Positions 1-42,338 of a DNA stretch of 42,338 nucleotides are shown piece after piece; within the stretch, counting starts at the first letter, position 1, and each line of letters starts with the position of its first letter. Made by a program: the position numbers and the translations under genes. The DNA comes from a virus: IMG/VR virus record IMGVR_UViG_3300009360_000004; one strand, 5' to 3'. The notes below the pieces were generated by a model. That model had not been told where the DNA came from. It searched no databases and worked only from the letters and a program-made list of their open reading frames with translations.

Positions 1-136
1 GACGAAGATCTCCCCTCGGCTCTCCAACTCACGGCCTGCGACATGGTGGATCACCAGATGCTGGAGATATCCGGTATCAAGTCTCAGAGTCTCGAAGGCG
101 CTTCGGTCACATACGAAAGTAGCTATTCTCAGAAGA
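1..136. repeat. Terminal direct repeat: bases 1-136 are identical to 42203-42338 (assembly overlap of a circular or circularly permuted genome; unit length 42202 bp)
   Basis: Read both ends directly; the first 136 nt and the last 136 nt are the same string (gacgaagatctcccc...ctcagaaga). Confidence 0.9.
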
Positions 137-180
137 TTCTCAACGCTCTCAACAGGTACAGGAGAGTCCGCTATGTTTAG
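1..180 (+). CDS. Head-tail connector/adaptor protein (gp6-like), 3-prime part; the 5-prime part of the same gene is 42074-42338
   Basis: Frame 1 open from base 1 to TAG at 178-180 and continuous with the ORF starting ATG 42074 through the terminal repeat; N-terminus MALLTLTQYKALRGI...DDDEDL resembles the gp6-like connector family; sits after capsid genes. Confidence 0.55.
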   Translation, partial: DEDLPSALQLTACDMVDHQMLEISGIKSQSLEGASVTYESSYSQKILNALNRYRRVRYV

Positions 181-511
181 CAAGTTCGCGACCCTGAATC
201 CTGCCTTCATTGACAAGCTGCCTCAGACCTCGTTCACTATCAAGTCGAATCCCACAGTCGCGATCGATCCGCTCACAGGCCTGCAAACAACGACATACGG
301 AACGGAGACGGAAACGACAGGCTACATCGGCACATGGAGACAGGACCAGATATCCAGCAGCAACGGCAAGCTTACACTCGAGTCTCTGAAGGTCATTCTC
401 ACGACTCAGGTTTCAGTATCAGACATACTGGAGATCAACAGTTCAGACTACCGCATCGACGTGCTGGAGATCAAGCAGGGCTACTTCGTTCTCGGAGTTA
501 ATCCCACATGA
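173..511 (+). CDS. Putative head-tail joining / head closure protein
   Basis: 112 aa ORF, ATG overlapping the upstream stop; position between connector and tail genes. Function by position only. Confidence 0.45.
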   Translation: MFSKFATLNPAFIDKLPQTSFTIKSNPTVAIDPLTGLQTTTYGTETETTGYIGTWRQDQISSSNGKLTLESLKVILTTQVSVSDILEINSSDYRIDVLEIKQGYFVLGVNPT

Positions 512-897
512 AACAGTACGGCGATCGAGATGCACACATACGCTCCAATGTGGATGAACTGAACAGATACCTTCAGATTCTCGCTGCGAAGATGGACCCT
601 GAGTGTGCGAAGTTTGTTGTTCGCGATCTTGCACTGGCAATACTTGCAGACTTGAAACTCAACTCGCCTGTCGTAACCGGGAATCTTCGAGGTAACTGGA
701 ATCTGGAAGAGATCGCAAACGCTATGGCCTATCACATCTACAACAACACGGAATATATCTTTGATGTCGAGTATGGTCAAGCAGCGAGCGCGGGATTCGT
801 CCGCAGGACACTCGAAGACTGGAGACTGAAAGCCCCTGAATTCATTCGCTCCAGGATCGAAGCCTGGATCGAAAAGAAAAGGAGGGAGGCACATTGA
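508..897 (+). CDS. HK97 gp10-like tail-completion protein (putative)
   Basis: 129 aa ORF, start overlaps upstream stop (ATGA); segment SPVVTGNLRGNWN is typical of the HK97 gp10 family. Confidence 0.5.
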   Translation: MKQYGDRDAHIRSNVDELNRYLQILAAKMDPECAKFVVRDLALAILADLKLNSPVVTGNLRGNWNLEEIANAMAYHIYNNTEYIFDVEYGQAASAGFVRRTLEDWRLKAPEFIRSRIEAWIEKKRREAH

Positions 898-1334
898 CGG
901 CCACTCTCTATCGCAACATTCAAGCGTCTCTGAGAATGTACTTCTCAGCCAAATACAGCTCGGGGACATGGTACATAGATCGAAAGAACGAGAACATGAC
1001 GGAGGACACCTTCATCGAACTTCAGACATCTCTAGGAAGGAGGCAGGATGAAAAGAAAGCGTATCAATATGATTTTGCGCAGCTCCTGGTACACAGCAAA
1101 AGCGTTGCGACGCTTGACACTGTCATTGGCACTCTCACAACGGCGATAGAAGGCGCCGGCGCGATCCCCGTCATGGACTATGTGGGTTACACGCCGCCTG
1201 AAGAGGGCGAGCCTCCGGCGGCACACACTCAAGTTGGAGAGCTTCAGATCTCCAGATACGAACTCTCCCAGCAATCGGCAATCAGCAACTACGCGGTGCG
1301 CGCAATCACCGTGTACTACGAATTCATCGAGTAA
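894..1334 (+). CDS. Putative tail component (tail terminator-like position)
   Basis: 146 aa ORF, TTG start overlapping upstream stop, preceded by GGAGGGAGG RBS. Confidence 0.4.
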   Translation: MTATLYRNIQASLRMYFSAKYSSGTWYIDRKNENMTEDTFIELQTSLGRRQDEKKAYQYDFAQLLVHSKSVATLDTVIGTLTTAIEGAGAIPVMDYVGYTPPEEGEPPAAHTQVGELQISRYELSQQSAISNYAVRAITVYYEFIE

Positions 1335-1348
1335 AGGAGGAACTTCTC

Positions 1349-1909
1349 ATGGGAAGACCATATCTTAGAAAGAAACACGTGACCATCTCGCTTTTTGATG
1401 CGACGACAACAACACCATTTACCCAGACCATCACCGGGTATGCCGACGTTCCGGAACTGCCCGAACCTGTCATAGACGCTCCGGCAGAAGGCTACGCCCC
1501 TCAAGGTGTGTTCAATTCGATCGAAGAAGGCGACGACACAATCAATCTGCCAGAGTTCTCAATCACAGTTGACATCAACGATGCAGATGTTGCGTCAAAC
1601 AAGTACGCGCTCAACGAATGGTTCAATAATCACAAAGATAGCACCGGCTCAACCACGCTCAAGTCCACGAATGACGGTTCGGCGTACCTGAAGAAGTCCA
1701 TCGACGGAAGCACTGTGTCTGCGAACCTTGCTACCGACTGGTTTACAATCGGTATGAAGATATTGTTTAACAACAGCGGAACTAGTAAAGCGTTTGGAAA
1801 GCAGTACAAGTATGTCAGACCTATTTCCGCAACTTTCAGTACCAGCAACAAGGCTCAGGTAACTCTCAGGATGCAGATAGTGGGCGCTCCGACCGACATC
1901 ACGTCGTAG
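1349..1909 (+). CDS. Putative major tail (tube) protein
   Basis: 186 aa ORF with AAAGGAGG RBS 7 nt upstream of ATG; T/S-rich beta-type composition; position in tail module. Confidence 0.4.
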   Translation: MGRPYLRKKHVTISLFDATTTTPFTQTITGYADVPELPEPVIDAPAEGYAPQGVFNSIEEGDDTINLPEFSITVDINDADVASNKYALNEWFNNHKDSTGSTTLKSTNDGSAYLKKSIDGSTVSANLATDWFTIGMKILFNNSGTSKAFGKQYKYVRPISATFSTSNKAQVTLRMQIVGAPTDITS

Positions 1910-1917
1910 GTGATGCT

Positions 1918-2157
1918 ATGAACATTGTTTATGAGATTGAACTGTACGACGGTAACGGAAAGCTGCTTGCAAAGTTTGAGAATCCGACAAAAACCACGAT
2001 CAAGGGTCCAATTACGATCGAGTCGGACAAGTTCATTGAGAACAACAAAGTCACTCTCCAATGCATTGCTACGAACGTTGTACTCGAAGAACTGAAAGAG
2101 GCTATCGTGAAGAGTCTTGGAACGAAAGAAGTAATCGACGACGAAAAAACTCTCTGA
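1918..2157 (+). CDS. Hypothetical protein (tail module)
   Basis: 79 aa ORF, ATG 1918, followed by a terminator hairpin. Confidence 0.45.
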   Translation: MNIVYEIELYDGNGKLLAKFENPTKTTIKGPITIESDKFIENNKVTLQCIATNVVLEELKEAIVKSLGTKEVIDDEKTL

Positions 2158-2186
2158 CGGAGGGGCTTCGGCCCCTTCGTTCTTTC
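2158..2186 (+). terminator. Rho-independent terminator (GGGGC-UUCG-GCCCC stem-loop plus T-rich tail)
   Basis: ggaggggcttcggccccttcgttcttt read directly; UUCG tetraloop hairpin followed by a T-rich run. Confidence 0.6.
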
Positions 2187-2198
2187 AGGAGGGATACT

Positions 2199-3557
2199 AT
2201 GGCATACAGAAAATGGCAGAAGAAAAAGACGAGTCTTAGCATAGAAGAACTCACAGAACAGGAAGTTCAAACAAGGATGCTGAATCGCACAAACAAAGGT
2301 CGATGCGGTTATACTCCTCACTTTTATGGTTCTCACTCTGGCCTTGTTGGAGCGAGAATAGGAGAGCTGGTAGCTCACAATATCCCAGACGATGCATATG
2401 GTGTGGAGTGGGATCTCAGCGACAGTTCTTCGGAGCTTACCAGGATAGGTCAAGCTGCAGGGATGGATTCTGATGACTTTGATCTTATTGAACCGTTTGC
2501 AAGTATAGAAAGAATGACTCTTGATAGTGACGGAAATTGGATAGCATCTTTTGGCGATGCGGGATTTGTTGAAGATGGTACAGCCGGTGATGTGGTATCA
2601 AGGTTCAAGAAAGCCTATTATTTTACATATTACTCGCCGGAAGACAAAAAAGTCAGAATGTACTTTTCACCTGAACCGCTGCCCGGGTTTGTACCGTTTG
2701 ACTGTTTTGTAACCGGCGGGCAAACACTCGAAGAAATATATCTAGGCGCATATGAAGGTACTGTTCAAAAAATATCAGACAGCTCATGGGTAGAAGACGC
2801 ATCAGACGGTTCGAATCCAATACAGATAGCTACTCTCGACCTTCCAGACCATATGTTACGTTCCGTCTCCGGAAGAAAGCCAAAAACTAACCAGAATTTA
2901 CCGGAGTTTCGTACTATGGCAGAGAACAGAGGCACTGGTTGGGGATTGGTTGATCTTAAACAGGCCGGAATGGTGAATCTGCTATATCTAATTAAATATG
3001 CTGATTTCGACGCTCAAACGACAGTGGGGCAGGGCATAACCGGAAAAGCATCTGGAACAGGGAACGAATCTGAATTGACTGGTGCAACAGCACTACTAGG
3101 AGCTGTGGACACAGGAGGAACCAACCTTGAAGCAGTCTCGCTATTCGGACTTGAAAACTGGTGGGGTAATATGTGGGAGTTCACAGACGGTGGTGGTATA
3201 AAGTCTGATGGGTTTTATGTAGCTCCAGATAGACCTTACAACGATACCCTAAGTGGATACACACAAATACCGTGTTCACCTCCATTGACAAACGGTTATC
3301 TGAAAGACTTTTACTGGACTCAGGACTCGAAAGGTCTGTTCCTGCCAAAAAGCGTTCAAACCGATGTTCCGTCTGCAAGCAAGTATGTGTGTGACTATCT
3401 ATATACTCCGGCAGCTTATACTACGAACTGCTTTCTACGGGGCGGCCGTTGGATTGACGGCTCGCATGCGGGGCCTTTCTATTGGCATCTGTATTATTCG
3501 TTTGCTTATCGGCATCGGAACGTCGGGGCGCGCGCCTGTTTTGTTCCTACGGTTTAA
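2199..3557 (+). CDS. DGR target protein: putative receptor-binding / tail protein with C-terminal variable region
   Basis: 452 aa from ATG 2199 (RBS caggaggg; the track ORF 2061-3557 reads through the terminator so the true start is 2199). C-terminus ...NCFLRGGRWIDGSHAGPFYWHLYYSFAYRHRNVGARACFVPTV matches the usual C-type-lectin-fold variable-region pattern of DGR targets (RGG-W...G.F...R.VGaR.C). Confidence 0.75.
   Translation: MAYRKWQKKKTSLSIEELTEQEVQTRMLNRTNKGRCGYTPHFYGSHSGLVGARIGELVAHNIPDDAYGVEWDLSDSSSELTRIGQAAGMDSDDFDLIEPFASIERMTLDSDGNWIASFGDAGFVEDGTAGDVVSRFKKAYYFTYYSPEDKKVRMYFSPEPLPGFVPFDCFVTGGQTLEEIYLGAYEGTVQKISDSSWVEDASDGSNPIQIATLDLPDHMLRSVSGRKPKTNQNLPEFRTMAENRGTGWGLVDLKQAGMVNLLYLIKYADFDAQTTVGQGITGKASGTGNESELTGATALLGAVDTGGTNLEAVSLFGLENWWGNMWEFTDGGGIKSDGFYVAPDRPYNDTLSGYTQIPCSPPLTNGYLKDFYWTQDSKGLFLPKSVQTDVPSASKYVCDYLYTPAAYTTNCFLRGGRWIDGSHAGPFYWHLYYSFAYRHRNVGARACFVPTV
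3428..3499 (+). repeat. DGR variable repeat (VR) at the 3-prime end of the target gene
   Basis: Aligns base for base with 3625-3696 (offset 197); 58/72 identical; all 14 mismatches sit where the other copy has A. Confidence 0.8.
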
Positions 3558-3624
3558 TGGTTTTCCGCGGTTTGTAACAATTTTGGTACATTAACATACA
3601 AGTTTGGTCTGTGATTGAAGGAAC

Positions 3625-3696
3625 CTGCTTTCAACAGGGCAGCAATTGGAATAACAGCTCGAATGCAGGGCCTTTCTATTGGAATCTGAATAATTA
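3625..3696 (+). repeat. DGR template repeat (TR), intergenic
   Basis: Non-coding copy of the VR carrying 22 adenines, 14 of which differ in the VR; seven AAY (Asn) codons in the VR reading frame, the classical TR signature. Confidence 0.8.
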
Positions 3697-3742
3697 CTCG
3701 TCTTACCGCATAATGACGTAAAGTGTAAAAAAAACAAACGAA

Positions 3743-3766
3743 GCAGCCTACAATAGGCTGTTTTTG
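3743..3766 (+). terminator. Rho-independent terminator immediately downstream of the TR
   Basis: cagccta-caa-taggctg hairpin followed by ttttt. Confidence 0.55.
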
Positions 3767-3809
3767 TTTATTAACGCAAATATCTTGAACCTCTACCGGA
3801 GGTGAATCT

Positions 3810-4715
3810 ATGAATGATTCAATGTATTTGGACTATGAGCTTTACGGCAATTCAGAAGCAAGAGATGAAATATACTATGACAATGGTTGGAAGTTGCTGA
3901 GACGCTGGCACAAAGAAACCGTTACTTTTGCCAGCAACACCGCAACGCTCTCAAAAGTCGGAAAAGGCGATTGTGAAGTCACGGGTGGTGTGGCAGGAGT
4001 CGTATCTGGCACCACCTGCACAGCAACCATCGCGGATGGAGACCATGAAGTTCTGTATATGCTTCTAATTCCTGAAACCACAGAAATTGGTGCGGGTGTT
4101 GGTTTTGCTACTGATAAAGACGGCGTAATGCTAGACCTTCATCAAGCCAAACAGGTCGATGTTTTTGTTGGTGATGGATATACAACCGAATTTACACTCA
4201 CTGAAACCCCGAATGGAACTGCAAGCATTAAGGCATTTGTAAATGGTCTTGAAGATACAGATGTAACCGTGACTACTACTAAGGTTACATTTACGACTGC
4301 CCCACGCCGCAAAGCGTTGGTTGAGGTTGAATATAGTCTTGCGGTCAAGTATCAGGAACCTTTGACGTATTTGGAATATCTCGAAGCCTCAGGAACCGTC
4401 GAAACAGTACCCGCTCTGGTAGATCTCACAGTCACAGAGAACGAAGAAAAGACAGGCTACGTCAACGTTGACGGTGCACCGCTCAAAGTCGCGGGTAACA
4501 AGACGTACACGGTCACAGTCAACAAAGATTTGATCGAGTCTCAGGACAATGTGCTGGAAGAATACAGAGACAAGAAATTCAGGCTCAAAGTTTCGAACTC
4601 AAGAGACTCAAGCAACGAATACCTCGGAGTCTGTCATATCGACCCCGACGCTTCTCTGGATTACCTGAACGGAACTGAATCAATCACGATAAAGTGTGGT
4701 GATCTCTATGATTAG
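3810..4715 (+). CDS. Putative structural (tail) protein, beta-rich, possible Ig-like C-terminal region
   Basis: 301 aa ORF, RBS cggaggtga before ATG 3810; T/V-rich segments (TVTVTTTKVTFTT, KTYTVTVNKD); no RT motifs. Confidence 0.45.
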   Translation: MNDSMYLDYELYGNSEARDEIYYDNGWKLLRRWHKETVTFASNTATLSKVGKGDCEVTGGVAGVVSGTTCTATIADGDHEVLYMLLIPETTEIGAGVGFATDKDGVMLDLHQAKQVDVFVGDGYTTEFTLTETPNGTASIKAFVNGLEDTDVTVTTTKVTFTTAPRRKALVEVEYSLAVKYQEPLTYLEYLEASGTVETVPALVDLTVTENEEKTGYVNVDGAPLKVAGNKTYTVTVNKDLIESQDNVLEEYRDKKFRLKVSNSRDSSNEYLGVCHIDPDASLDYLNGTESITIKCGDLYD

Positions 4716-5148
4716 CCTCGAATACGGCGTTGAAGTGATACAGCTCAAACCTAAAGACTACGAGAACTGGCTCTATTCTCCGAACGCTCCAACCGAGACA
4801 GACGCGGAATCAGGCGAAATCGTTGACAAGTGGGACACCGAGCAAGGTTCGACGTTTCAATACTTCTTGCTCACATGGGATGAGAACGGAGTGGCCACCC
4901 AGAGAGAAGTCTCGAAGCTCTACGACTTCCTGAAAGCGAAGCCGACCGTCGCAAACCCGATGACTCTCACATTCCCGATGTACCGGGAAGATGGTTCACA
5001 GTATCAGGGCAGGTTCTATGTGGTCTTTGCCGACACCGCGGGTGAGCAGCGTTGCCAATTTAATCAGGCTTTGCGCGCACCAGATGGCACGGCGTACTAC
5101 ACCGGAACGGTCGCATTGATCGAGATAGAAAGGAACGACGACGTGTAA
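4708..5148 (+). CDS. Hypothetical acidic protein (tail module)
   Basis: ORF 4696-5148; the ATG at 4708 overlaps the upstream stop; no recognisable motifs. Confidence 0.4.
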   Translation: MISLEYGVEVIQLKPKDYENWLYSPNAPTETDAESGEIVDKWDTEQGSTFQYFLLTWDENGVATQREVSKLYDFLKAKPTVANPMTLTFPMYREDGSQYQGRFYVVFADTAGEQRCQFNQALRAPDGTAYYTGTVALIEIERNDDV

Positions 5149-5167
5149 CACTCAGGGAGGGGATAAC

Positions 5168-6253
5168 TTGAAGGTCGCAGTTTACGCGATCGCAAAGAAC
5201 GAGGCTAAACACGTGCCTCGATGGTATGACTCCATCGCTGAAGCGGATGGAGTTTTTGTTACAGACACCGGTTCGACCGACAACACGGTTGAACTTCTCA
5301 AAGAACGTGGGGTCAATGTCTTTCATGCAGAGATCGAACCGTGGCGATTCGATGTAGCCAGAAACATCTCTCTTGAGAATGTACCTGAAGACTTCGACGT
5401 ATGTTTGTGCATTGATTTAGACGAAGTAATGGAGAAGGGCTGGAGAGAGAAGGTCGAGAGAATCTTTCGGCTTTACCCGCAGGCCACTCTCGTTCGCTGG
5501 CCGTTCGTGTTCAGCTGGTTCGATGAGAAATGCACGAAACCAAAGACTTCAATGTACCAGTGGAAGATTCACGTCAGACACGGTTATCACTGGGAGTCTC
5601 CCATTCACGAAATCTTGGTATGGCATGGGAATGGCGAGACTCTGGAAGTTTATTGCGAAGACATTCACAGCTGGCATTATCAGGATCTCTCGAAACCTAG
5701 AGAGTATCAGAAACTCATCGACAAGGCCGTCTCCGAAGATCCCACAGATCAACGTCTTTCATGGCTTCGTGCGAGAGAACTGATGATGCATAACAGATTT
5801 GAAGAGGCCATCGAAGAGGCCAAGAGGCACCTCGACCTCACCAAAGAGATCAAGGAAGGCGAGAACACGCTCGTTATTGAACAGCTCCGGGCGCTCTCAA
5901 TGCGGTATATCTCGCAGGCTCTCATGCAGAGACACAAGCAAGACAAGACAGTCGATGCGGGAGAAGTCATTGAATGGATGCTGAAGTCTGTGGCCGAGTG
6001 TCCCTGGCTCCGTGAATCGTGGGTGGCTCTCGCTCAAGCGTGGGCGCTCTTCGATCAGTGGGAACAGGTCTATGCGTGTGCGACTTTCGCGCAGACCATC
6101 AAGGCGAGAACGAATTCGATAGAAAACGACGAGCTGGCCTGGGGCGAGTACCCGGAAAAGCTCGCAAGAATAGCGTGGAAGCAGATCAGAAAAGGAGGGA
6201 AAAGATTTGAGCAACAAGCCAAAGACGGACGTTCAAAAAGCAGAAAAGTTTAA
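5168..6253 (+). CDS. Glycosyltransferase family 2-like protein with C-terminal helical (TPR-like) region
   Basis: 361 aa, TTG start after agggagggg RBS. N-terminus KVAVYAIAKNEAKHVPRWYDSIAEADGVFVTDTGSTDNTVELL plus downstream DLDEV (DxD) matches the GT-A fold pattern of GT2 enzymes. Confidence 0.6.
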   Translation: MKVAVYAIAKNEAKHVPRWYDSIAEADGVFVTDTGSTDNTVELLKERGVNVFHAEIEPWRFDVARNISLENVPEDFDVCLCIDLDEVMEKGWREKVERIFRLYPQATLVRWPFVFSWFDEKCTKPKTSMYQWKIHVRHGYHWESPIHEILVWHGNGETLEVYCEDIHSWHYQDLSKPREYQKLIDKAVSEDPTDQRLSWLRARELMMHNRFEEAIEEAKRHLDLTKEIKEGENTLVIEQLRALSMRYISQALMQRHKQDKTVDAGEVIEWMLKSVAECPWLRESWVALAQAWALFDQWEQVYACATFAQTIKARTNSIENDELAWGEYPEKLARIAWKQIRKGGKRFEQQAKDGRSKSRKV

Positions 6254-6773
6254 TCTCAAAGAGATGATGAAGGATCCCGGCAAGAAGGGATACTTCAGAT
6301 CTCACGGATACTCGGAAATCAAGGTCACGCGCATGAACGAAGAGGGCGAGATGGTCGTTGAGTATCCGAGAATTGAAATCTATCCTCTCGGGGATCACCC
6401 TGTGCTGAAACAATATCAAGATAAGTTCCCCGTTCCCGAGGCCCCAAAAACGATGCGGCTCATAAACAAGAACAACGGGAAAGAGTTCATCGACGAAGGG
6501 CTCTCGATCGAGCAGGCGAAGAACGACCCGAACTATGCCTGGGGCATGGTATATGACTACACCGACGGAGAATACCGCAAAGCAGTCGAGAAGCGAAGCA
6601 GCGATATCTCGATACTCATGATCATGATCTGTCTCGATATGGTCGAGGAGTTCGGGATCGAGAAGATAGAAGAGTTTCAGGAGGCTCTCAAAGATCTGGG
6701 CTTCACCGCAAATCAGCTCAACAAAATCGGGAGTGATATCAAGGCGCTGGATTTTTTGCCCAGCAAGAGCTAG
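6207..6773 (+). CDS. Tail assembly chaperone (gpG-like), upstream partner of a -1 frameshift pair
   Basis: 188 aa ORF immediately upstream of the tape measure gene, TTG start after aaaggaggg RBS; run of six T (6752-6757) near its 3-prime end; the -1 frame is open from 6737 to 7018. Confidence 0.55.
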   Translation: MSNKPKTDVQKAEKFNLKEMMKDPGKKGYFRSHGYSEIKVTRMNEEGEMVVEYPRIEIYPLGDHPVLKQYQDKFPVPEAPKTMRLINKNNGKEFIDEGLSIEQAKNDPNYAWGMVYDYTDGEYRKAVEKRSSDISILMIMICLDMVEEFGIEKIEEFQEALKDLGFTANQLNKIGSDIKALDFLPSKS

Positions 6774-7018
6774 AATACCGGGTACGTGACTGGTATGACT
6801 GGGACAGATTCGAGTACGAAGAGGAGTATGTCCCTGAAGCTCTGAAAGTGATGCTCTGCATACAGAAGTTTGGCCTCACGCTCGAGGAGTGGAGAGACCT
6901 GAAACGAGAGGACCAGCTGGTCTATCTCTACGGAATGACGGGAATCTCGATGCTCGAAAGGCGCGAAGCGGAGAGGGCAAAACAGGCAAGCCAGAATAGA
7001 GGGAGCGTTCTTGATTGA
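6752..7018 (+). other. Putative -1 programmed frameshift site (T TTT TTG) and gpT-like extension ORF
   Basis: Slippery heptamer at 6752-6758 in the zero frame of the chaperone; the -1 frame has no stop from 6737 to TGA 7016-7018 and no good start of its own; classic G/GT arrangement before a tape measure gene. Confidence 0.45.
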
Positions 7019-7036
7019 GCGCTCCTTTCTTTTGGA

Positions 7037-10000
7037 GTGATGACTATGGCTTTCGAAGGACTGAATTTTGATGTTGGCCTGAACTCGAGGCCGTTCACAG
7101 ACGGAATCAAGACGATGCAGACTCAGGCTGCCTCGTTTGATAATACAATCAAGAATATTGGCAGAACGCTTATGGGAGTCTTCGGGACCGTCTCTGTCGT
7201 CGCCACACTGAAGAAGTCTATCGAGTTGTGGGGCGAGCAGGAGCAAGCGATGATGAAACTCTCCATCGCCGCGCAGAGGTTCACGAGAGACGCGCAGGGT
7301 ACATACGACAGGGTCACAAAACTGTCGGGCAATCTCCAGCACCTCACGGGCATAGGGAACGAGACGTACCAATCCGTCGCGGCTCTGGGCCTCTCGCTCG
7401 GAATCACGGAGGAGAAGATCGAGAACGCCACGACCGCGGCGGCCCTCCTCTCGCAGGTGACGGGGATGGATCTGAACAGCGCCATGAAGAACCTGGCAAA
7501 GACTCAGGCGGGATTGACGGGTGAACTTGGAGAAGCTCTCCCGTTTCTCAGAGAACTGACGCAAGAACAATTGAAGAGTGGTGCAGCAATCGACCTCGTG
7601 ATTCAGAAGTATGACGGCTTTGCCGAGCAGCTTTCAGGCACAACGCAGGTGGCGATGAAGAGATTCTGGTCCGCGCTTGGAGATGTCGGGGAGGTCCTGG
7701 GCAAGTCGTTCAACCCCTTGATTCAAAAAGCCGCTGACTGGATGGAAGGCTTCAGCTCGAAGATCGAGAAACCGACCGACATTCTCAAGACACTAAAAGA
7801 CACGATCAAGGCAGGATACGAAGAACTCGGGCCGTTCGGCAAGGCTGTTGTAGGTGTAGGTGCTGCGTTCCTGACGCTCAAGGTTGCTGGCACTGCATGG
7901 AGCTTGCTCTCACAGATAGTTGTGGCTGGTGGTCATCTGATTGTAGGCGTGTTCAAGACGATATTCTCGTGGCCCACACTCTTAATTGCTGGTTTGTACA
8001 CCCTTCGTGTTGCATGGGATCACGACTGGTTCGGGATTCAGGGGACGGTTGAACACGTTTGGAAAGTGATTGAGCCTATATTTATAAAACTCAAAGACGG
8101 TCTCGTCTCAGCCTCCACATGGGCTATATCTCTGGTTTGGGAAGGCGTGAAGTGGGCTGGAGAAAAGATAGCCGTCACATACGAAACTATCAAAGACTGG
8201 GTGCTCGAAGAGCTTGCACTTGGGAAGTCCCCGCTTGAGATCGTCGTTGATGCCGCAAAGATTGCGGGCGGTGTTGTCTGGGATGGTCTTACATGGGTAG
8301 GAGAAAAAATCGCGCTAGGTACGCAAATAGTCTTTGACTGGGTAAAATCTCAATTTGGAGATGAAATAGAGGTTGTAATCAATGCAGCTAAAGTCTTCGG
8401 TGGTATGGTTTGGAAAGGGCTCAAATGGGCCGGAGAGAAAGCAATAGTTACTGCACAGATGATTTATGATTTTGCTCTTAAATATGTACCGCTTGGTATT
8501 GAGACTGTTATCAACGTTGCATCAGTGTTTGGTTCGGTGATTTGGTCCGGCTTAAAATGGATAGGTGAAAAAGCAGTTAATCTTGCGGTTCTTATCAAAG
8601 ACTTTGCAGAAAGTGAAATAGATACAGGCTTTGAACAAACAATACAGATTGCAAAAGTCTTCGGCTCTATCATATGGTCTGGTCTCAAGTGGGTTGGAGA
8701 AAAGATAGTTCTCGGTATCAAAGTGATAGAAGGTTGGGTGAGAGATCAACTTGATCTCCCAGAAACCGCAACGCTCCCTGAAATCTTCCTTGATATGGTC
8801 AGAGTAGTTGGCACGGCAGCGTGGGATGGCTTGAAATGGGTAGGCCAGAAGGTTGCTATTGGTGCCAAAGAAGTCTATGATTGGGCTTCCGAAGGGCTAG
8901 AAACAGGCTTTGAACTCACAATCGAAGTTGCTAAACTGTTTGGCGGGGTAGCCTGGCAAGGGTTGGTAAAACTCGGTGAATGGTCATATGATGTTGCTGT
9001 GTGGGCTAAGGACAATGTCCTCCCTGCTGTGATTGAGACTACGGTTGAAGTTGGAAAGGTAATCGGTGGCGTTAGCTGGCTAGGTCTCAAATGGGTAGGT
9101 TCACAGATTGCGATAGGTTTTGACACTCTCAGAAACTGGGTCTATTCGGAGCTTGGCCTTGACAAGTATGGAGCGACATCAAATATCCTGATCGAAGTTG
9201 CCAAAGTCTTCGGAGGTCTAGGCTGGCTCGGTTTGAAATGGACCGGAGAAACGATAATTCTCGGATACGAAGCGCTCAAGAAGTGGACTGAAGAGCAGCT
9301 AGGCACCACACCGGTTGACATCATTCTCAATGTTGCGAAAGTAACAGGCACGGCAATCTGGGAAGGTGTGAAGTGGATAGACGACAAACTCCCAAAGATT
9401 GATCTCGGTGCTGACGATGAACAGAAAGTAGATCAGGGCATCGTGGATGTAGTTGTGAGTGCGATAGCTAACATTGCATCGTGGCAGTGGAGGGGCTTTG
9501 TCTGGCTCACTGAGAAGGCTTCATTCGGGCTCGACTGGCTCGCAGATCAGATCCGACCGAAAATAAATGTTGAAGTAAACGGAGACGATAACTCGGGTTT
9601 TGATATTGGAGATATAGGAGTATTCGCAAAGGGAGTCGCGAAGGTATTCTCAATGAAGTGGGAAGCCGTCAAGTGGCTCTGGACGAAAGTCACACAGAGC
9701 ACTTTCATTGAGGACCTGAAAAACAGAATAAAGAAATCATCGGGCATAGATGATGAGGTCGAAGTCACCTGGAAAGACTTGTTAGTCCGGGGCTTCGGCT
9801 CTATTGGCTCTGCCGCGTGGGATGGTCTTACATGGTTTGCGGAAGGTCCGGTACATACATTTGCCGACTGGGTACGAAAGCAGATCGGTATGAGCGAAGC
9901 CGGAGAGATGAAAGTAAACCTCGGGGATGACATTAAAGTGATCCTCTCGGGTGCAGTCTCTGGTGCGACTTGGCTAGTTGATTGGGTCAAACAAGGGATA

Positions 10001-12346
10001 GGGGCCGCAACCGAATGGCTTCAAGATGTAGGAGCAGTCCTTCGTAGGGCTGTGGAAGGCGTAGAAATGAGCGCAGAGGATATAAAACTCTATGAAACCA
10101 CGGCTTCGTTTGGCGTAAAATTGGGTGAGTTCATAGGTGCTGGAATCAAAGCGGGCCTCAATCTTCTTGACATAATTCAGAGTGCGCTTGCTGGAGTAAT
10201 TGCAGAAATGACAGGCTCAAAAGAAGTTGGCCAAGTTGCTGGGACTGCAATTCCTTTGTTTTTCACTGCAAAGTGGCTCATGACTCCAATTGCTACACTT
10301 ACCCCATTTCTTGTTGCTGCAATGGGTTTCGCGGGATTGAAGCCTCTCACTTTCGGGACGTTCGGTGTGATGGTTGCGTTAAAAGTTGCGCAGGATCTTT
10401 CAACAGGCGAGGCCGAGTGGCAGGACATAGGGGCAAGGTTCGTTGCCGCCCTTGCCGTGGGTATGGGGATAGGAGCGTTTCTCGGCAGTCCGAGCGCGGG
10501 GGTGCTGACATTCGAGCTTCTCATGCTCGTCAAAGTTGAAAAGTTTGTTGACAGCATAGGAAATGTTGTGAAAGATCTTGTGGACGCTGTCCTGTTCCCT
10601 GAATTCGTCGATCTTCCTGTATCTGAGAAGATGGAGAAGACTATCGGCGCACTTGAAAAGCTCGATCAGACTCTTGACAGACCCGCAGACAATCTTGCAA
10701 CGTGGCTCATCACTGTGGATGAAGCACTCGGAAATTTTTACAATACATTCCCGACGAAAGTCGAACTCAATCAGATGGGCGAACTTGAACAGAGCTACTA
10801 TATGGCCGTGCTCGAATATGCTCATGCCCTTGAGGCGTCATCAAATGCGATACTCGATGCAGCAGATGATCTTGCAGCAACGGCTCAAATGATCGAGAAC
10901 ATGAGACAGATAGTTGTGCCGATACCTGGGAAAGCAGAAGGCGGTTACATCTCAGGCCCGGGCGGTCCTAAAGAGGATAGAATACCCGCCCTACTCTCGA
11001 ACGGTGAGTTCGTAGTCAATGCGAAGTCAACCGAAAAGTGGCTACCGTTCTTGAAAGCAATCAATGCTCAAGGCTTTGCAGACGGTGGAATAGCTCGGTT
11101 TGCCACAGGCACGGCAACGAAGATAGACGTTGGCAGTATTGGTGGTGGTCCGCTCACATGGTGGGATACAATTCTAAACACCCTTATGAGTGTGGTCGGA
11201 GACTATGCCGAGACCGCAAAGAAAGACTTCGGGATGATTAAGAACGTACTCGGAGACTTGCTCAGAACAATAGGTCTTGACATCGACGCGCCGCTAGACA
11301 ATCTGAACAAACTGCAAAGTGAGCTTGACGGTCTGACTCTTTCTACGAGCGATACAGGTGATACAGTAGAAGACTTCATGACCGCCATGTTCAGGGGATA
11401 TCGCAAAATCAATCAAATCTCTGAGGTTCTCAGTGAAGGCAAGATAGAGAACGTCAATAGACAGCTTGCGTTCCTTGATACTGCGATGAACGATCTTGAA
11501 AAACAGTTCATGGAAGGAACCATCCAGCTCGGAGAGTACACGGAAAGAATGACATATCTCAAGAATTTGACAGACAGTTTCTCTGACTCTCTCGGAGACC
11601 TCAAGAAGAAGATTGAACGCAGCTCGATAGTCGGTGACTCATCCGAGATATTCAAGGTTGACGAGAACACCGGCGAGCTGGTCTCTGTATTTGCAAAACT
11701 GAGGCCGGGCATGGAAGGACTCACAGATGTTGTGGGCAATTTAGCCACAGCGGGTGAAATGTTTGCCATGAGTCTGTTGAATCAGGTCGTGAACCTCGAA
11801 GCTATCAACATGCTCCTGAATCCGATCTCAACGATTCTCACAGGTGTGATGGAGATACTAGGTCCGATCATCAACCTCTTGAAACCTCTCGGCGACGCGC
11901 TGGTCAGCATAGGCAGAGTCTTCGCCCTGACGTTCAATCTCTTCGGTCAGGGCCTCCTGGTTCTCCAACCGTTCTTCAAGGCTCTAGGCTGGCTCGGTGC
12001 TACGATCTCGTATATCGCGGACCAGATAGTCCTGTTCGTCGATGGAATTTTCACCTGGTTAAGCACTCTGCCGTTCATAGGTGGTCTGTTCAGTCCTCTC
12101 CTAACAGAGGATCAGAGGCAGAGCATGAAGCGCACCATCCCGGAGAGGATGGAAGATATCGAGCTTCCACAGTCCACGACAGGGCAGGTCTTCCAGGCAG
12201 GGAGTTCCCAGCACATCACGAACAACTACCACTTCGAGTTCAGGGGAAACGACATTCTCACAGAAGACGACGAAAGCGCCCGACGGTTCGCAGATCTCAT
12301 CTACAAGAACCTTCGCGATCGCGGCGTTCAGTTGCAGGTAGGGTGA
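7037..12346 (+). CDS. Tail tape measure protein
   Basis: 1769 aa ORF (ATG at 7040 or 7046 more likely than GTG 7037); largest gene, after the chaperone pair; N-terminal coiled coil, hydrophobic central segments, at least ten tandem ~45 aa repeats carrying W-x-G-L-K-W-x-G-E-K. Confidence 0.85.
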   Translation: MMTMAFEGLNFDVGLNSRPFTDGIKTMQTQAASFDNTIKNIGRTLMGVFGTVSVVATLKKSIELWGEQEQAMMKLSIAAQRFTRDAQGTYDRVTKLSGNLQHLTGIGNETYQSVAALGLSLGITEEKIENATTAAALLSQVTGMDLNSAMKNLAKTQAGLTGELGEALPFLRELTQEQLKSGAAIDLVIQKYDGFAEQLSGTTQVAMKRFWSALGDVGEVLGKSFNPLIQKAADWMEGFSSKIEKPTDILKTLKDTIKAGYEELGPFGKAVVGVGAAFLTLKVAGTAWSLLSQIVVAGGHLIVGVFKTIFSWPTLLIAGLYTLRVAWDHDWFGIQGTVEHVWKVIEPIFIKLKDGLVSASTWAISLVWEGVKWAGEKIAVTYETIKDWVLEELALGKSPLEIVVDAAKIAGGVVWDGLTWVGEKIALGTQIVFDWVKSQFGDEIEVVINAAKVFGGMVWKGLKWAGEKAIVTAQMIYDFALKYVPLGIETVINVASVFGSVIWSGLKWIGEKAVNLAVLIKDFAESEIDTGFEQTIQIAKVFGSIIWSGLKWVGEKIVLGIKVIEGWVRDQLDLPETATLPEIFLDMVRVVGTAAWDGLKWVGQKVAIGAKEVYDWASEGLETGFELTIEVAKLFGGVAWQGLVKLGEWSYDVAVWAKDNVLPAVIETTVEVGKVIGGVSWLGLKWVGSQIAIGFDTLRNWVYSELGLDKYGATSNILIEVAKVFGGLGWLGLKWTGETIILGYEALKKWTEEQLGTTPVDIILNVAKVTGTAIWEGVKWIDDKLPKIDLGADDEQKVDQGIVDVVVSAIANIASWQWRGFVWLTEKASFGLDWLADQIRPKINVEVNGDDNSGFDIGDIGVFAKGVAKVFSMKWEAVKWLWTKVTQSTFIEDLKNRIKKSSGIDDEVEVTWKDLLVRGFGSIGSAAWDGLTWFAEGPVHTFADWVRKQIGMSEAGEMKVNLGDDIKVILSGAVSGATWLVDWVKQGIGAATEWLQDVGAVLRRAVEGVEMSAEDIKLYETTASFGVKLGEFIGAGIKAGLNLLDIIQSALAGVIAEMTGSKEVGQVAGTAIPLFFTAKWLMTPIATLTPFLVAAMGFAGLKPLTFGTFGVMVALKVAQDLSTGEAEWQDIGARFVAALAVGMGIGAFLGSPSAGVLTFELLMLVKVEKFVDSIGNVVKDLVDAVLFPEFVDLPVSEKMEKTIGALEKLDQTLDRPADNLATWLITVDEALGNFYNTFPTKVELNQMGELEQSYYMAVLEYAHALEASSNAILDAADDLAATAQMIENMRQIVVPIPGKAEGGYISGPGGPKEDRIPALLSNGEFVVNAKSTEKWLPFLKAINAQGFADGGIARFATGTATKIDVGSIGGGPLTWWDTILNTLMSVVGDYAETAKKDFGMIKNVLGDLLRTIGLDIDAPLDNLNKLQSELDGLTLSTSDTGDTVEDFMTAMFRGYRKINQISEVLSEGKIENVNRQLAFLDTAMNDLEKQFMEGTIQLGEYTERMTYLKNLTDSFSDSLGDLKKKIERSSIVGDSSEIFKVDENTGELVSVFAKLRPGMEGLTDVVGNLATAGEMFAMSLLNQVVNLEAINMLLNPISTILTGVMEILGPIINLLKPLGDALVSIGRVFALTFNLFGQGLLVLQPFFKALGWLGATISYIADQIVLFVDGIFTWLSTLPFIGGLFSPLLTEDQRQSMKRTIPERMEDIELPQSTTGQVFQAGSSQHITNNYHFEFRGNDILTEDDESARRFADLIYKNLRDRGVQLQVG

Positions 12347-12350
12347 TAGT

Positions 12351-12698
12351 ATGACAGTTGACATAGGATCTCTCAGTTTCACGGTGTACCCGAAGAAATA
12401 CAAGCACCCATACAGAACCAGAGTGATCGAGCCGGTGGAGGTCATAAACATTGCGCCCGACGGTTCGGCATATCACTATTGTGACGGCACGGTGAAGAGA
12501 TACAAAATACCTCTCTTCTTCACCGAGTCGGACAGAACCACGCTGGAATCATACAGGCAGACCGCGGCGACTTTGAAGATAGACTCGGAGTCTGCCGTGA
12601 ATGTGAAACTGATCGGGAACTACGAGTACAAAGAAAAGTGGATCAAAGGCGTGGCAATGTACGAAGAAACGCTTGAGTTCCTGGAGGTGGCCACATGA
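12351..12698 (+). CDS. Hypothetical tail protein (distal tail protein position)
   Basis: 115 aa ORF directly after the tape measure gene, overlapping the next gene by 4 nt. Confidence 0.4.
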   Translation: MTVDIGSLSFTVYPKKYKHPYRTRVIEPVEVINIAPDGSAYHYCDGTVKRYKIPLFFTESDRTTLESYRQTAATLKIDSESAVNVKLIGNYEYKEKWIKGVAMYEETLEFLEVAT

Positions 12699-15586: not shown

Positions 15587-15597
15587 GAGGGAATAGT

Positions 15598-34580: not shown

Positions 34581-34652
34581 AGGCACGTAGCGCAATGGCA
34601 GCGCATCCGTCTCATAAACGGAAGGGTAGCGGTTCGAATCCGTTCGTGCCAC
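34581..34652 (+). tRNA. tRNA with CAU anticodon (tRNA-Met or lysidine-modified tRNA-Ile2 type)
   Basis: Hand-folded cloverleaf: 6 bp acceptor stem plus A1-A72 mismatch, D arm gcgc/aatggca/gcgc, anticodon arm tccgt-ctCATaa-acgga, variable loop agggt, T arm agcgg-ttcgaat-ccgtt. Confidence 0.6.
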
Positions 34653-39046: not shown

Positions 39047-39950
39047 GGGCGCTTTCGACGACTTCGAGCGATGGTACGACGGCTTCACGAAGCGGCAGTT
39101 GAAGGAACTGGAGAAAGCCTACCGCGAGTCGCTCAAGGTCACAAAAGAGGAACTCGAGAAATACTACAAGACTTTCTCGAGAGGTGGCAAACTCACACTG
39201 GCCGAGATGCAGAAGTACGACCGGCTTCGAAAGATGCAGAAAGATCTCGACGCCGCGATTCTCGATCTCTCGCGTACCCAGGCGAAAGAGGTCCTGACTC
39301 TTCTATCTGAGGTTTATTTTGAAGGCTACAACCGCATGGGCTGGCTTGCAGAACAGGCGACAGGAATCAACCTCAGATGGTACGTACTGCCGAAAGACTT
39401 CATCAAGAAAGCGATTCAAAATCCGGTGTCTGGCCTGACCCTGAACGAAGTCCTCGAAAAGAACAGACAGGAGATCCTCTGGCGCATCCGCCAGGAAGTC
39501 ACGCAAGGTTTGATAAAAGGTGAGAGCTACTTCGACACGGCCAAACGGCTCAAGGAAGCGCTCGAAGGGAACTATGCGAAAGCCCAGAGAATAGTCTGGA
39601 CCGAGAGTCACAGGTGTAAGGAACAGGCGCAACTCGAAGCACACCAGAGGTTGAAAGAAAAAGGAGTCGATGTCAAGAGGATGTGGGTGGCCACCCTTGA
39701 TAATAAGACTCGCGACACCCACGGCGAACTTGATGGTCAGATAGATGACAAAGATGGATACTTTCACGTTCGGGGCATGACAACCAAAGCTCCTGGAATG
39801 TTTGGCATAGCGAGCGAGGATTGTAATTGCAGATGCGCTGCAATAGAGATCTTCGAGGGCAGCGAACCTCGCACGAGAATGATTCAGGGTAAGGGGATAA
39901 GCGATTACATAACATACAGTGAATGGAAGAGACAGCAAAAGGAGGGATAG
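39030..39950 (+). CDS. Head morphogenesis protein (SPP1 gp7 / Mu F-like minor capsid protein)
   Basis: ATG 39030 (or 39021); C-terminal RMWVATLDNKTRDTHGELDGQ...NCRC matches the Phage_Mu_F signature. Confidence 0.75.
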   Translation: MALTTKGAFDDFERWYDGFTKRQLKELEKAYRESLKVTKEELEKYYKTFSRGGKLTLAEMQKYDRLRKMQKDLDAAILDLSRTQAKEVLTLLSEVYFEGYNRMGWLAEQATGINLRWYVLPKDFIKKAIQNPVSGLTLNEVLEKNRQEILWRIRQEVTQGLIKGESYFDTAKRLKEALEGNYAKAQRIVWTESHRCKEQAQLEAHQRLKEKGVDVKRMWVATLDNKTRDTHGELDGQIDDKDGYFHVRGMTTKAPGMFGIASEDCNCRCAAIEIFEGSEPRTRMIQGKGISDYITYSEWKRQQKEG

Positions 39951-40042
39951 TGAGCGAAATTTAGAAAGGTCTTAGAGAAAATCACGATTTTTAATTACAA
40001 CACTCTGAGGGCATATGGCACTCGGAGGGACAGGAGATATAT

Positions 40043-40657: not shown

Positions 40658-40672
40658 GGAAGGTGAAAAGCA

Positions 40673-41515
40673 ATGCCAATTGACAACTTTATTCCCGAGA
40701 TATGGAGCACTAGACTCATGCGGCATCTCGACAAGAATCTCGTGTTCAAGCAACTCGTGAATACAGATTACGAAGGCGAGATTAAAGCCGCCGGAGATAC
40801 AGTTAGAATCAACCAGATAGGCAACATTACAGTAAAGCCTTACGTTAAAAACGTCGCGATCGCGGATCCCGACCAGCTCGATTCCGCCCAACAGCTCCTG
40901 CTCATCGACCAGCTCCACTATTACAACTTCTACGTCGATGACGTGGACGCCGCCCAGTCGAACGTGACGCTCATGGATAAAGCTATGGCCAGAGCGGCAT
41001 ACGCTCTTGCGGACCTGATCGACCAGGATGTCGCGGGTCTTCACGGAGACGCAGGCATAACGATGGACGACGGCGGGGCCGCCTACTCTGTGGGAAACGG
41101 AGCGGGAGATGAAAACCCCTACGACCTCATAGTCGATGTTGGTGTCGAGATGGATGAGCACAACGTTCCCAGAGAGGGCAGATGGATAGTCATTCCGCCC
41201 TGGTATCACGGAGTCCTTTTGAAGGATGACGACTACAAGCAGGCATGGCAGAACTACATGGCCACAGGAGTCGTCCCCGTAGTCGCCGGATTCTCTGTGC
41301 TCTGGTCCAACAACCTCGATATCGCAGCCGGAGGCACCGACTACCACGTCCTTGCCGGGACCAGAGAGGCCATCAGCTTCGCCGGTCAGGTCAACAAGAC
41401 CGAGGCGTACAGAGTCGAGAAGATGTTCGCGGACGCGATCAAGGGACTCTACGTGTACGGCCGCAAAGTCGTTCAGCCCACTTGCCTCGTCGATCTTCTT
41501 GTGGCAAAGGCTTAA
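40673..41515 (+). CDS. Major capsid protein (putative)
   Basis: 280 aa, RBS aaggaaggtga; position after scaffold and followed by a strong terminator one gene later; no family-specific motif recognised. Confidence 0.55.
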   Translation: MPIDNFIPEIWSTRLMRHLDKNLVFKQLVNTDYEGEIKAAGDTVRINQIGNITVKPYVKNVAIADPDQLDSAQQLLLIDQLHYYNFYVDDVDAAQSNVTLMDKAMARAAYALADLIDQDVAGLHGDAGITMDDGGAAYSVGNGAGDENPYDLIVDVGVEMDEHNVPREGRWIVIPPWYHGVLLKDDDYKQAWQNYMATGVVPVVAGFSVLWSNNLDIAAGGTDYHVLAGTREAISFAGQVNKTEAYRVEKMFADAIKGLYVYGRKVVQPTCLVDLLVAKA

Positions 41516-41526
41516 GAGGTGACATC

Positions 41527-42036
41527 ATGAGAAAACTTGCAACCCTGCTTGTTGTTATCGCCCTCCTGGTCGGAGGGCTTACTTTTGGCACGACCATCAC
41601 GGCCACGCCGGTTGAGGTTACGGGCCTCGATTTCGTGGAGTTTGACCTGAGCGGCATGACTTCCCTCACGCTGGTGGCTACGACCTCGACCAACGTCTCG
41701 ACGGACACATACGCCTGTACATTCAATTTCGCATATGACTCGCCGCGGATAGGTATTATGTTTGGAATCGATCCTGAGCTCTCTGATGCCTCGCCCACAG
41801 CTTACGCCACCAGTATAGTTATTGAAATTCTCCCGGGCGACTTTGGAGGTGCATCAAAAGGATCGCTGAGCACTACGCTCACCGGCACGGACACCACAAG
41901 TCTCCTGCTCGGGCCACTCGAAACCTTCCAGTTTTTGAAGTCGGGAGGCTATATTTCGGTGAAAGTCACCTGGAACGCAGTAGCTACGAACGGCGTGCCT
42001 ACTGTCGAGGTATATCTATTCAAGTTCGAATATTAA
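41527..42036 (+). CDS. Secreted/membrane-anchored protein with N-terminal hydrophobic signal-like segment (capsid-module accessory)
   Basis: 169 aa from ATG 41527 (RBS aagaggtga); N-terminus MRKLATLLVVIALLVGGLTFGTT; the track ORF from 41245 overlaps the capsid gene and is rejected. Confidence 0.5.
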   Translation: MRKLATLLVVIALLVGGLTFGTTITATPVEVTGLDFVEFDLSGMTSLTLVATTSTNVSTDTYACTFNFAYDSPRIGIMFGIDPELSDASPTAYATSIVIEILPGDFGGASKGSLSTTLTGTDTTSLLLGPLETFQFLKSGGYISVKVTWNAVATNGVPTVEVYLFKFEY

Positions 42037-42040
42037 CGAA

Positions 42041-42062
42041 GGGGCCTAGACGGCCCCTTTTT
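42041..42062 (+). terminator. Rho-independent terminator after the capsid operon
   Basis: ggggcc-tagac-ggcccc hairpin followed by ttttt. Confidence 0.6.
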
Positions 42063-42073
42063 GGAGGTGCTAT

Positions 42074-42338
42074 ATGGCACTCCTGACATTGACGCAATAC
42101 AAAGCACTCAGGGGAATCACAAGCTCGACTCAAGATACTCAACTCACGGCGATAATCTCGGCGGTCGAAGCAGAGATCAAGGGTGTCTGTGGGTACGACG
42201 ATGACGAAGATCTCCCCTCGGCTCTCCAACTCACGGCCTGCGACATGGTGGATCACCAGATGCTGGAGATATCCGGTATCAAGTCTCAGAGTCTCGAAGG
42301 CGCTTCGGTCACATACGAAAGTAGCTATTCTCAGAAGA
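42074..42338 (+). CDS. Head-tail connector/adaptor protein (gp6-like), 5-prime part; continues at 1-180
   Basis: ATG 42074 after ggaggtg RBS; reading frame continuous through the terminal repeat to the stop at 178-180 (about 102 aa in total). Confidence 0.55.
   Translation, partial: MALLTLTQYKALRGITSSTQDTQLTAIISAVEAEIKGVCGYDDDEDLPSALQLTACDMVDHQMLEISGIKSQSLEGASVTYESSYSQK

Follow-up and report, generated by a model that had tools for sequence, protein, structure and literature searches.

The window (the whole 42,338-nt stretch of viral DNA analysed here) harbours what is very probably a fossil diversity-generating retroelement (DGR). It represents one stage of a graded decay series in which the reverse transcriptase (RT) gene and part of the template repeat (TR) were deleted, apparently with displacement by an HNH cassette. 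A preliminary description had noted a variable repeat (VR) and a TR in a complete genome without RT or avd gene, and had offered a decaying DGR, an orphan cassette served in trans or another polymerase as explanations. The first of these is supported: a close relative retains an intact element, the deletion junctions are situated inside the TR and the RT ORF, and the VR still matches the part of the TR that was lost.

Target gene, repeats and remnants of the RT gene

The following features of the window are relevant to this conclusion.

1-136 (no strand): terminal overlap, identical to 42203-42338, closing a genome of 42,202 nt
2199-3557 (+): DGR target gene, tail protein of 452 aa (PHROG phrog_5302 'tail protein', E = 5e-73)
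3428-3544 (+): VR, 117 nt, aligning along its whole length with the complete TR of the RT-bearing relative L035
3558-3624 (+): leader from the target stop codon to the TR, by sequence comparison almost identical to the L035 leader
3625-3695 (+): TR remnant, nt 1-71 of 117 with the 3' 46 nt absent, 97% identical to L035 TR nt 1-71
3696-3774 (+): 79-nt filler, consisting of the HNH-cassette 5' junction ACTCGTCTTACCGCATAATG and an intrinsic terminator without the HNH ORF (junctions from L002, L040 and L041)
3775-3813 (+): relic of the RT gene, last 12 codons (RKYLEPLPEVNL) and stop, from tblastn with the L035 RT
3810-4715 (+): next structural gene, homologous to L035:5286-6194 and L029:1709-2908

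When compared by sequence with Pfam and the PDB, the target protein had no match, and it is identified through its predicted fold only. The best PDB folds for its AlphaFold model (pLDDT 84.9) are those of DGR variable proteins, namely TaqVP (5VF4, E = 5e-13), Mtd (1YU0-4) and TvpA (2Y3C), and its C-terminus is predicted to be a DGR-type C-type-lectin/FGE-like fold. The VR is found at the 3' end of the target ORF, in the last 43 codons. Positions 3428-3525 form its adenine-variable part; from 3525 onwards there is an IMH-like block of high GC content (GGGGCGCGCGCC). This block is unlike its counterpart in the TR (GGAGCACGCACC), and no stable hairpin is formed downstream (fold z = +0.8).

Comparison of 3428-3498 with 3625-3695 yielded mismatches at 14 of 22 TR adenines and at none of 50 other positions (Fisher p = 1e-9). 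With all 14 mismatches at template adenines, the VR/TR pair recognised earlier is genuine. An adenine-masked TR pattern matches the window at these two places only (0 matches expected by chance), and the TR read in frame displays the typical AAY codons. Relative to the full TR of L035, the window VR is changed at 15 of 27 TR adenine sites and at one of 71 other sites (p = 1e-9). Among ten distinct relatives, the VR is polymorphic at 24 of the 27 adenine sites and at nine of the 71 others.

Beyond 3695, homology to the L035 TR is lost. For VR nt 72-97, the non-adenine mismatches amount to 0/18 against the L035 TR, versus 11/18 against the window sequence 3' of the TR stump. Since the VR matches a full 117-nt TR that is now gone, it appears to have been last rewritten before the TR was truncated, and it probably preserves the outcome of earlier adenine mutagenesis in frozen form.

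Identity in the region 3500-3700 is 93-98%, compared to about 80% elsewhere, and the TR remnant is identical in L041 and near-identical in L002 and L040. As stated in the preliminary description, a terminator follows the TR: a terminator scan located a hairpin at 3740-3764 (fold z = -3.1), followed by a T-run. The 79-nt filler is present in identical form in the independent contigs L001, L006, L012, L013 and L022. A tblastn search with the L040 HNH protein detected no HNH ORF in the window and matched only L002, L011, L040 and L041. The spacer motif CTTGGCAAAAC, common to L029 and L035, is likewise absent from the window.

Downstream of the filler, colinear homology with L035 resumes at L035:5250, which is 40 nt before the RT stop. 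The best tblastn match of the L035 RT in the window is the relic itself, corresponding to RT residues 323-334 (RKYLEPLMEVKL) with 10 of 12 residues identical. It overlaps the ribosome-binding site (RBS) and the start of the gene at 3810-4715, the product of which weakly matches PHROG 'virion structural protein'.

Relatives and the proposed course of decay

The close relative L035, of which L042 is a second record of the same phage, shares about 84% nucleotide identity with the window. Its locus is ordered as target gene, 117-nt TR, spacer, 334-aa DGR RT and homologue of 3810-4715. The RT matches RVT_1 (E = 7e-17) and features the motifs IGNYTSQ and YMDD. Between target and RT of L035 only non-coding DNA was found, with no avd, and the next gene lies immediately downstream of the RT. 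The more distant L029 carries a TR, an RT, a small ORF and then the homologue of 3810-4715. An avd or equivalent accessory gene is not universal among DGRs, and the earlier expectation of an Avd in the window is inapplicable, since intact relatives also lack one.

Comparison with L035 establishes that the ancestral order was target with VR, 117-nt TR, spacer of about 120 nt, 334-aa DGR RT and next structural gene. This arrangement survives in L035/L042 and in L029. The window lineage has lost about 1.13 kb of it, which took away TR nt 72-117, RT codons 1-322 and the spacer between them. Left over are a 71-nt TR stump, the 79-nt terminator filler and the last 12 RT codons with the RBS of the next gene.

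Other relatives occupy further stages. At the former RT site, L002, L040 and L041 have a gene for a 229-aa HNH protein (Pfam HNH, E about 2e-7), equipped with an RBS and a terminator of its own. In all three it is preceded by the 5' junction that also begins the window filler, and in L040 it is followed by the same terminator as in the window. The TR is shortened to 23 nt in L005 and missing from L003, L004 and L034. Nested deletion alleles have a common right junction, ..(A)CGCAAATATCTTGAACC, which differs by a single base in L004. In this sample, eight RT-less genotypes stand against one RT+ genotype among the close relatives, and identity among the genomes is mosaic, with patches of 98-99% versus about 80%.

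Phages can carry free-standing genes for HNH homing endonucleases, which move into intergenic positions at the expense of adjacent DNA. The cassette resembles them in that the 229-aa ORF occupies one and the same junction in several relatives that are diverged elsewhere and in that the DNA flanking the site is unusually similar between genomes. It differs from them in the window, where only the 5' junction and the terminator are kept, and a homing role is putative. We infer that such a cassette took the place of the lost TR/spacer/RT segment and that the HNH ORF of the window was later deleted between short ATTATG/ATAATG repeats. Replacement of the RT by HNH followed by loss of HNH is the order suggested by the junction sequences; HNH may also have inserted into a window-like allele.

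Without RT, priming spacer and TR 3' end, the element is presumably unable to diversify on its own. The receptor-binding tail protein would then be fixed at one variant and would change by ordinary mutation or recombination only.

One finding counts against decay: the RT-less relatives all carry different VRs, and these vary at TR-adenine sites. A single RT loss combined with different VRs requires that VR diversity existed beforehand and that different genomes recombined or received the cassette by homing. Recombination is plausible as the source of the VR differences, although the mosaic identity patches do not prove it, and diversification after the loss explains these differences equally well. 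The consensus VR is identical to that of the window in near-identical genomes from other samples. Such identity argues only weakly for inactivity, as the VR is also the same in the two records of the RT+ phage, which may not be independent samples.

Search for an RT and alternative explanations

A Pfam scan of the 20 large genes yielded no RVT_* or Avd family. The same holds for 102 other plus-strand stop-to-stop segments of at least 66 aa, with nothing at E ≤ 0.0065, and for 142 of 156 other minus-strand segments of at least 66 aa, with nothing at E ≤ 0.05; the 14 segments omitted from the minus-strand scan were 66-68 aa long. DGR RTs of relatives were compared with all six frames by phmmer, hmmsearch --max and tblastn, the profile being a local one built from the DGR RTs of two relatives, and the best E value was about 0.5. 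As a positive control, the RTs of L035 and L029 match RVT_1 at 7e-17 and 2e-20, respectively. The claim that the genome encodes neither RT nor Avd is therefore upheld by the Pfam scans of these genes and segments and, for the RT, by the six-frame searches, with the amendment that a 12-codon 3' RT relic persists at 3775-3813.

Several RT candidates were rejected. YxDD-like motifs occur on both strands; the ORFs concerned encode non-RT proteins such as terminase and portal, or are antisense and Pfam-negative. In L033, a 333-aa ORF that comes after the target homologue is unmatched by the RT profile. Insertions near window position 39950 in L002 and L001 were considered as RT sites, and that of L002 is intein-like or an endonuclease, not an RT.

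The preliminary description had proposed a search for an RT with a matching TR elsewhere; no cognate emerged from viral, genome or metagenome collections. Exact 25-mer/22-mer patterns, which would miss diverged TRs, were used to look for a second, RT-linked TR copy; among viral contigs they matched the same phage family only. These exact patterns matched no GTDB genome and, among JGI metagenome contigs, the L001 contig only. An L035-type RT had one match in GTDB species-representative genomes, in a Bacteroidales MAG that encodes an RT of 48% identity, and no host-borne cognate DGR was found in these genomes.

It is unlikely, in our estimate, that the VR is a live recipient, rewritten with RT and full-length TR RNA from a co-infecting L035-type phage or from a co-resident prophage with a full cognate DGR, while the stump is uninvolved. 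RT-less phages would then be 'free riders', rewritten by RT+ siblings such as L035 at co-infection, on a DGR that most genomes had lost to a homing endonuclease, with VR variants that post-date the RT loss, a scenario that we hold to be equally improbable. The VR retains full-length homology to the L035 TR as well as a GC-rich 3' block, and a BPP-1 phage deleted for avd-TR-brt was diversified by a plasmid-supplied copy (PMC3240598, PMC5758913). RT+ and RT-less variants occur in IMG samples with neighbouring taxon numbers, which from the numbers may belong to the same study series, and each RT-less genome has a different A-site VR variant. However, recombination in a visibly mosaic population also explains this diversity, and one identical VR is shared by near-identical RT-less genomes from several samples. 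A BPP-1-type hairpin is not evident 3' of the VR, and rewriting in trans has no direct evidence in its favour.

The second option of the preliminary description was that the TR stump is an orphan cassette, transcribed as leader, stump and terminator and reverse-transcribed in trans by a host or prophage DGR RT. The stump is well conserved (97% identity to L035) and, with a conserved leader before it and an intrinsic terminator behind it, does resemble a small transcription unit. However, cDNA synthesis by the BPP-1 DGR requires the TR 3' end and the downstream spacer, and the stump lacks the 3' 46 nt and the entire spacer. VR nt 72-97, which are variable at adenine sites, lie outside the stump, no sigma-70-like promoter was found for it, and the terminator is part of the HNH cassette. 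The stump is also wholly lost in some relatives. The exact-match patterns turned up no other copy of this TR in the viral, genome or metagenome collections, and the nearest RT in species-representative genomes is only 48% identical. With no cognate RT found, service in trans is unsupported for the window's own TR and must be considered very improbable.

That the primase-polymerase at 25967-27643 or another polymerase of the genome performs reverse transcription merits almost no credence: the gene has PHROG 'DNA polymerase/primase' matches (E = 8e-18) and weak Pfam RepB primase matches, but shows no RT similarity and is part of a replication module of the usual kind that includes SNF2 and UvrD helicases, and the canonical DGR RT of the intact relative makes a substitute, for which there is no evidence, unnecessary.

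An RT on a missing or collapsed segment is hardly conceivable either, although the window is a metagenome assembly and VR/TR-like repeats can collapse. The genome is closed, as claimed before, by the 136-nt terminal identity, and its end and start are bridged without a break by two independent contigs from other samples (L007 and L001/L013); because these contigs cross both ends, no segment is missing at the window edge. The arrangement of TR stump, filler and next gene is identical in independent contigs from other samples, and a 33.8-kb contig is 100% identical across window positions 6926-39685. A megablast search of window positions 1-20000 against GenBank phages gave no match.

Comparison with known DGRs and implications

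Like the BPP-1 mtd-avd-TR-brt system, Thermus TaqVP and Treponema TvpA, the window features adenine-specific VR/TR mismatches, an AAY-rich TR and a VR in the 3'-terminal part of a tail protein gene, the product of which has a predicted DGR-type C-type-lectin fold. The VR also has GC-rich sequence towards its 3' end, and the intact relative L035 encodes a DGR-clade RT with both motifs named above, as in canonical phage DGRs. Unlike these, the window has neither RT nor spacer and keeps 71 of 117 nt of the TR. In the BPP-1 paradigm, the target site has a GC-rich IMH where the VR ends and a hairpin or cruciform further downstream (PMC3240598). No hairpin of this type was detected 3' of the window VR, and in contrast to BPP-1 even the intact relatives are devoid of avd.

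DGR surveys include targets distant from the RT as well as experimental trans-complementation (Wu et al. 2018, PMC5758913), and 'DGR fragments' were described by Paul et al. 2015 (PMC4372165). The window resembles such degenerate or partial DGRs and in-trans targets in that no functional RT adjoins the target bearing the VR, but differs from surveyed remote targets in that the entire closed genome is devoid of an RT. Alignment with an intact sibling resolves the deletion junctions to the single nucleotide and so indicates that the RT was lost, not encoded at a distance. In the literature on RT-less, orphan or HNH-displaced DGRs, no directly matching description was found.

Taken together, an RT-less DGR in a complete genome reflects ordinary gene decay in this case, and neither a trans-acting nor an unconventional polymerase is required. 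The relatives provide a clean natural series of phage DGR decay, from the intact element, presumably via replacement of the RT by HNH and loss of HNH, to truncation and then disappearance of the TR. Detection of DGRs from VR/TR pairs without an RT may thus recover fossils, which calls for caution. The RT-less majority among the close relatives suggests that a DGR may persist only briefly in populations of lytic-type phages and may be displaced by selfish endonuclease genes.

Genome closure, gene content and absence of the RT

The preliminary description had treated the window as a complete genome, and this was confirmed. Positions 1-136 are identical to 42203-42338, so that the window constitutes a closed unit of 42,202 nt, and two independent contigs from other samples (L007 and L001/L013) read continuously from its end into its start. 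Contig L018/L024 (33.8 kb) matches window positions 6926-39685 at 100% identity. The gene set, with nearly all clear genes on the + strand, is that of an ordinary tailed-phage genome:

Head and packaging: terminase, SPP1-type portal, MuF, scaffold, capsid
Tail and other functions: tape measure, tail protein, glycosyltransferase, glucosaminidase
Replication and other functions: SNF2 and UvrD helicases, AEP-type primase-polymerase, ParB-methylase, radical-SAM protein, MazG

No integrase family was seen in Pfam scans of the window. The only host hint is entry P0001, 89% identical to the target protein, whose NCBI source is a Synergistaceae bacterium MAG. A tRNA-Met (CAT) gene at 34581-34652 is the sole Rfam or ARAGORN match in the genome. 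The tape-measure gene (7037-12346) contains diverged in-frame repeats at 8129-9376, mostly with a 132-nt period, which encode a Trp/Gly-rich motif (..W.G.KW.GEK..) in at least six copies of 61-74% identity. A 156-nt tandem duplication (20523-20834, 73% identity) lies within 20226-20849, where a 207-aa minus-strand ORF competes with + strand ORFs. This ORF, which yielded a zinc-ribbon match (XPA_N, E = 5e-7, above Pfam's cutoff), may be the sole minus-strand gene.

The genome lacks both RT and Avd, as had been described. Neither family was found by Pfam in 20 large genes, in 102 other + strand stop-to-stop segments of at least 66 aa or in 142 of 156 such minus-strand segments (14 of 66-68 aa were omitted). 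Low-stringency searches of all six frames with the DGR RT of a distant relative (L010, filters off) and with a two-sequence RT profile (all filters off) gave nothing better than E about 2, and no RT domain was found. As a positive control, the RTs of relatives match Pfam RVT_1 at 7e-17 and 2e-20.

The VR/TR pair and its intact counterpart

The following features define the locus (all coordinates refer to the window):

2199-3557, +, target gene
3428-3544, VR
3625-3695, TR stump
3696-3774, 79-nt filler
3775-3813, RT 3' relic
3810-4715, next structural gene

The VR/TR pair is real, in agreement with the preliminary description. With adenines masked, the TR matches the window only at 3428-3498 and 3625-3695 (0 matches expected by chance), and the VR is mismatched to it at 14 of its 22 adenines and at none of the 50 remaining positions (p = 1e-9). 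In frame, the TR is a run of AAY codons. The target belongs to a PHROG 'tail protein' family, and its predicted structure (pLDDT 84.9) resembles in fold the DGR variable proteins TaqVP, Mtd and TvpA, which are its best matches.

Relatives of the target protein are present in IMG/VR and other assemblies. The 16.8-kb contig L035 (ENA ERZ773285), with about 84% nucleotide identity to the window and 87% identity of the target protein, carries a complete element and recurs identically in IMG/VR contig L042. Behind its target gene follow, in order:

L035 4049-4165, TR, 117 nt
L035, spacer between TR and RT, 119 nt
L035 4285-5289, RT of 334 aa (RVT_1; IGNYTSQ and YMDD motifs)
L035, homologue of window gene 3810-4715, its start lying 4 nt ahead of the RT stop

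In the more distant L029, the order is TR, spacer, RT, a small ORF and then downstream genes as in the window and L035. The spacers of L029 and L035, which have the motif CTTGGCAAAAC in common, are absent from the window; shortly before the RT start, L010, L029 and L035 have in common a motif that includes GTAGGT. No intact relative has an avd gene. An ORF of 116-117 aa directly 3' of the RT (L029:1358-1708, L010:12743-13096), absent from L035 and without a significant Pfam family, could be an uncharacterised accessory gene.

Comparison with L035 makes the scars in the window visible. Homology to its TR ends after nt 71 (window 3695), and colinear homology restarts at window 3774 (L035:5250), 40 nt before the RT stop; about 1.13 kb is therefore missing, comprising TR nt 72-117, the spacer and RT codons 1-322. 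Translation of 3775-3813 gives RKYLEPLPEVNL*, compared to RKYLEPLMEVKL* at the C-terminus of the L035 RT, and is the best tblastn match of that RT in the whole window. The window VR is alignable to the full 117-nt TR. Across its nt 72-97, mismatches to the L035 TR occur at 4 of 8 adenines and at none of the 18 other sites; compared with the window sequence that follows the stump, 11 of 18 non-A sites are mismatched. This indicates that the VR was last written from a full-length TR now gone from the genome.

The HNH cassette and the decay series

L002, L040 and L041 have the window's TR stump and junction (ACTCGTCTTACCGCATTATG) and, behind them, a gene for an HNH endonuclease of 229 aa (Pfam HNH, E about 2e-7). 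In L040, this gene precedes a terminator hairpin as at window 3740-3764 and then the RT 3' relic as in the window. Since junction and terminator are common to both, the filler probably represents the HNH cassette minus its ORF, with the break between short ATTATG/ATAATG repeats. L002 has kept the HNH ORF and lost the terminator, the TR is down to 23 nt in L005, and L003, L004 and L034 are without a TR; these last four retain the right-hand junction to within a base or two. The RT would thus have been displaced by the HNH cassette, with nested deletions following, and the reverse order for the HNH step is also conceivable.

The window locus has an ordinary explanation: it is a decayed DGR that lost its RT and TR 3' end by deletion, a homing-endonuclease cassette apparently having displaced them. 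Of the explanations proposed previously, it is decay that holds, and every junction is readable because an intact sibling exists.

Near window 39950, a region that looks like a second hotspot of selfish insertions in the phage family, L002 (4286-5610, window about 39805-39996) has a MuF-like head protein gene with a roughly 1.3-kb intein-like insertion that carries an antisense 230-aa ORF. A further insertion, of roughly 480 nt, lies at 39950 in L001 (L001:4045-4527), which elsewhere matches the window at 99.6-99.9% identity. Target homologues are also encoded by more distant phages, namely L030-L032 (jumbo-sized contigs of 125-161 kb), L033 and L036-L038. They are 62-66% identical to the window protein (alignment A3), and their 3' ends are still alignable with the window family's TR, with a GC-rich block kept in L030-L033. 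No TR or RT was found in their flanks, which span up to 8-10 kb on sufficiently long contigs; these targets may be further fossils or remote targets.

VR diversity and alternative explanations

Among ten distinct VRs of the phage group, 24 of the 27 columns with a TR adenine are variable, compared with 9 of the remaining 71, so the DGR of this lineage was once active. The VRs of the RT-less genomes are all different. The cassette may have entered genomes that had already diversified, by recombination or homing, which is plausible because the genomes are visibly mosaic (98-99% identity patches on a background of about 80%). Within window 2200-5000, stretches of 65-80% identity to L035, L005, L034 and L003 alternate with patches of 97-99% over distances of a few hundred bases. 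L006 differs from the window by 23 substitutions clustered in 2790-2957, with just one more, at 4730, across the remaining roughly 10.7 kb of alignment. These patterns point to frequent recombination among co-circulating relatives.

In other samples, near-identical genomes without an RT carry exactly the window's VR. This fits a frozen VR but is weak evidence for it, because the RT-positive phage likewise has one VR in two records. Rewriting of the intact VR in trans by RT-positive siblings during co-infection would fit the different VRs of the RT-less genomes, and in BPP-1 a donor in trans can bring about diversification of a phage without avd-TR-brt (PMC3240598), so that by analogy the window VR might act as recipient. 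We consider such rewriting improbable. Use of the window's own TR by an RT in trans, as suggested previously, is unsupported. The stump cannot account for VR variation at nt 72-97 and is without the flanking RNA that BPP-1 requires (bioRxiv 10.1101/2023.10.23.563531). Exact searches found no further TR copy outside the phage family, and in GTDB genomes the best match to the L035-type RT has an identity of only 48%. The primase-polymerase (25967-27643), also suggested as an RT substitute, is likewise unsupported in that role.

The window thus holds a degenerate DGR of a known kind, the example itself being new. Its interest is modest and lies in the clear decay series and in a warning for RT-independent DGR detection.
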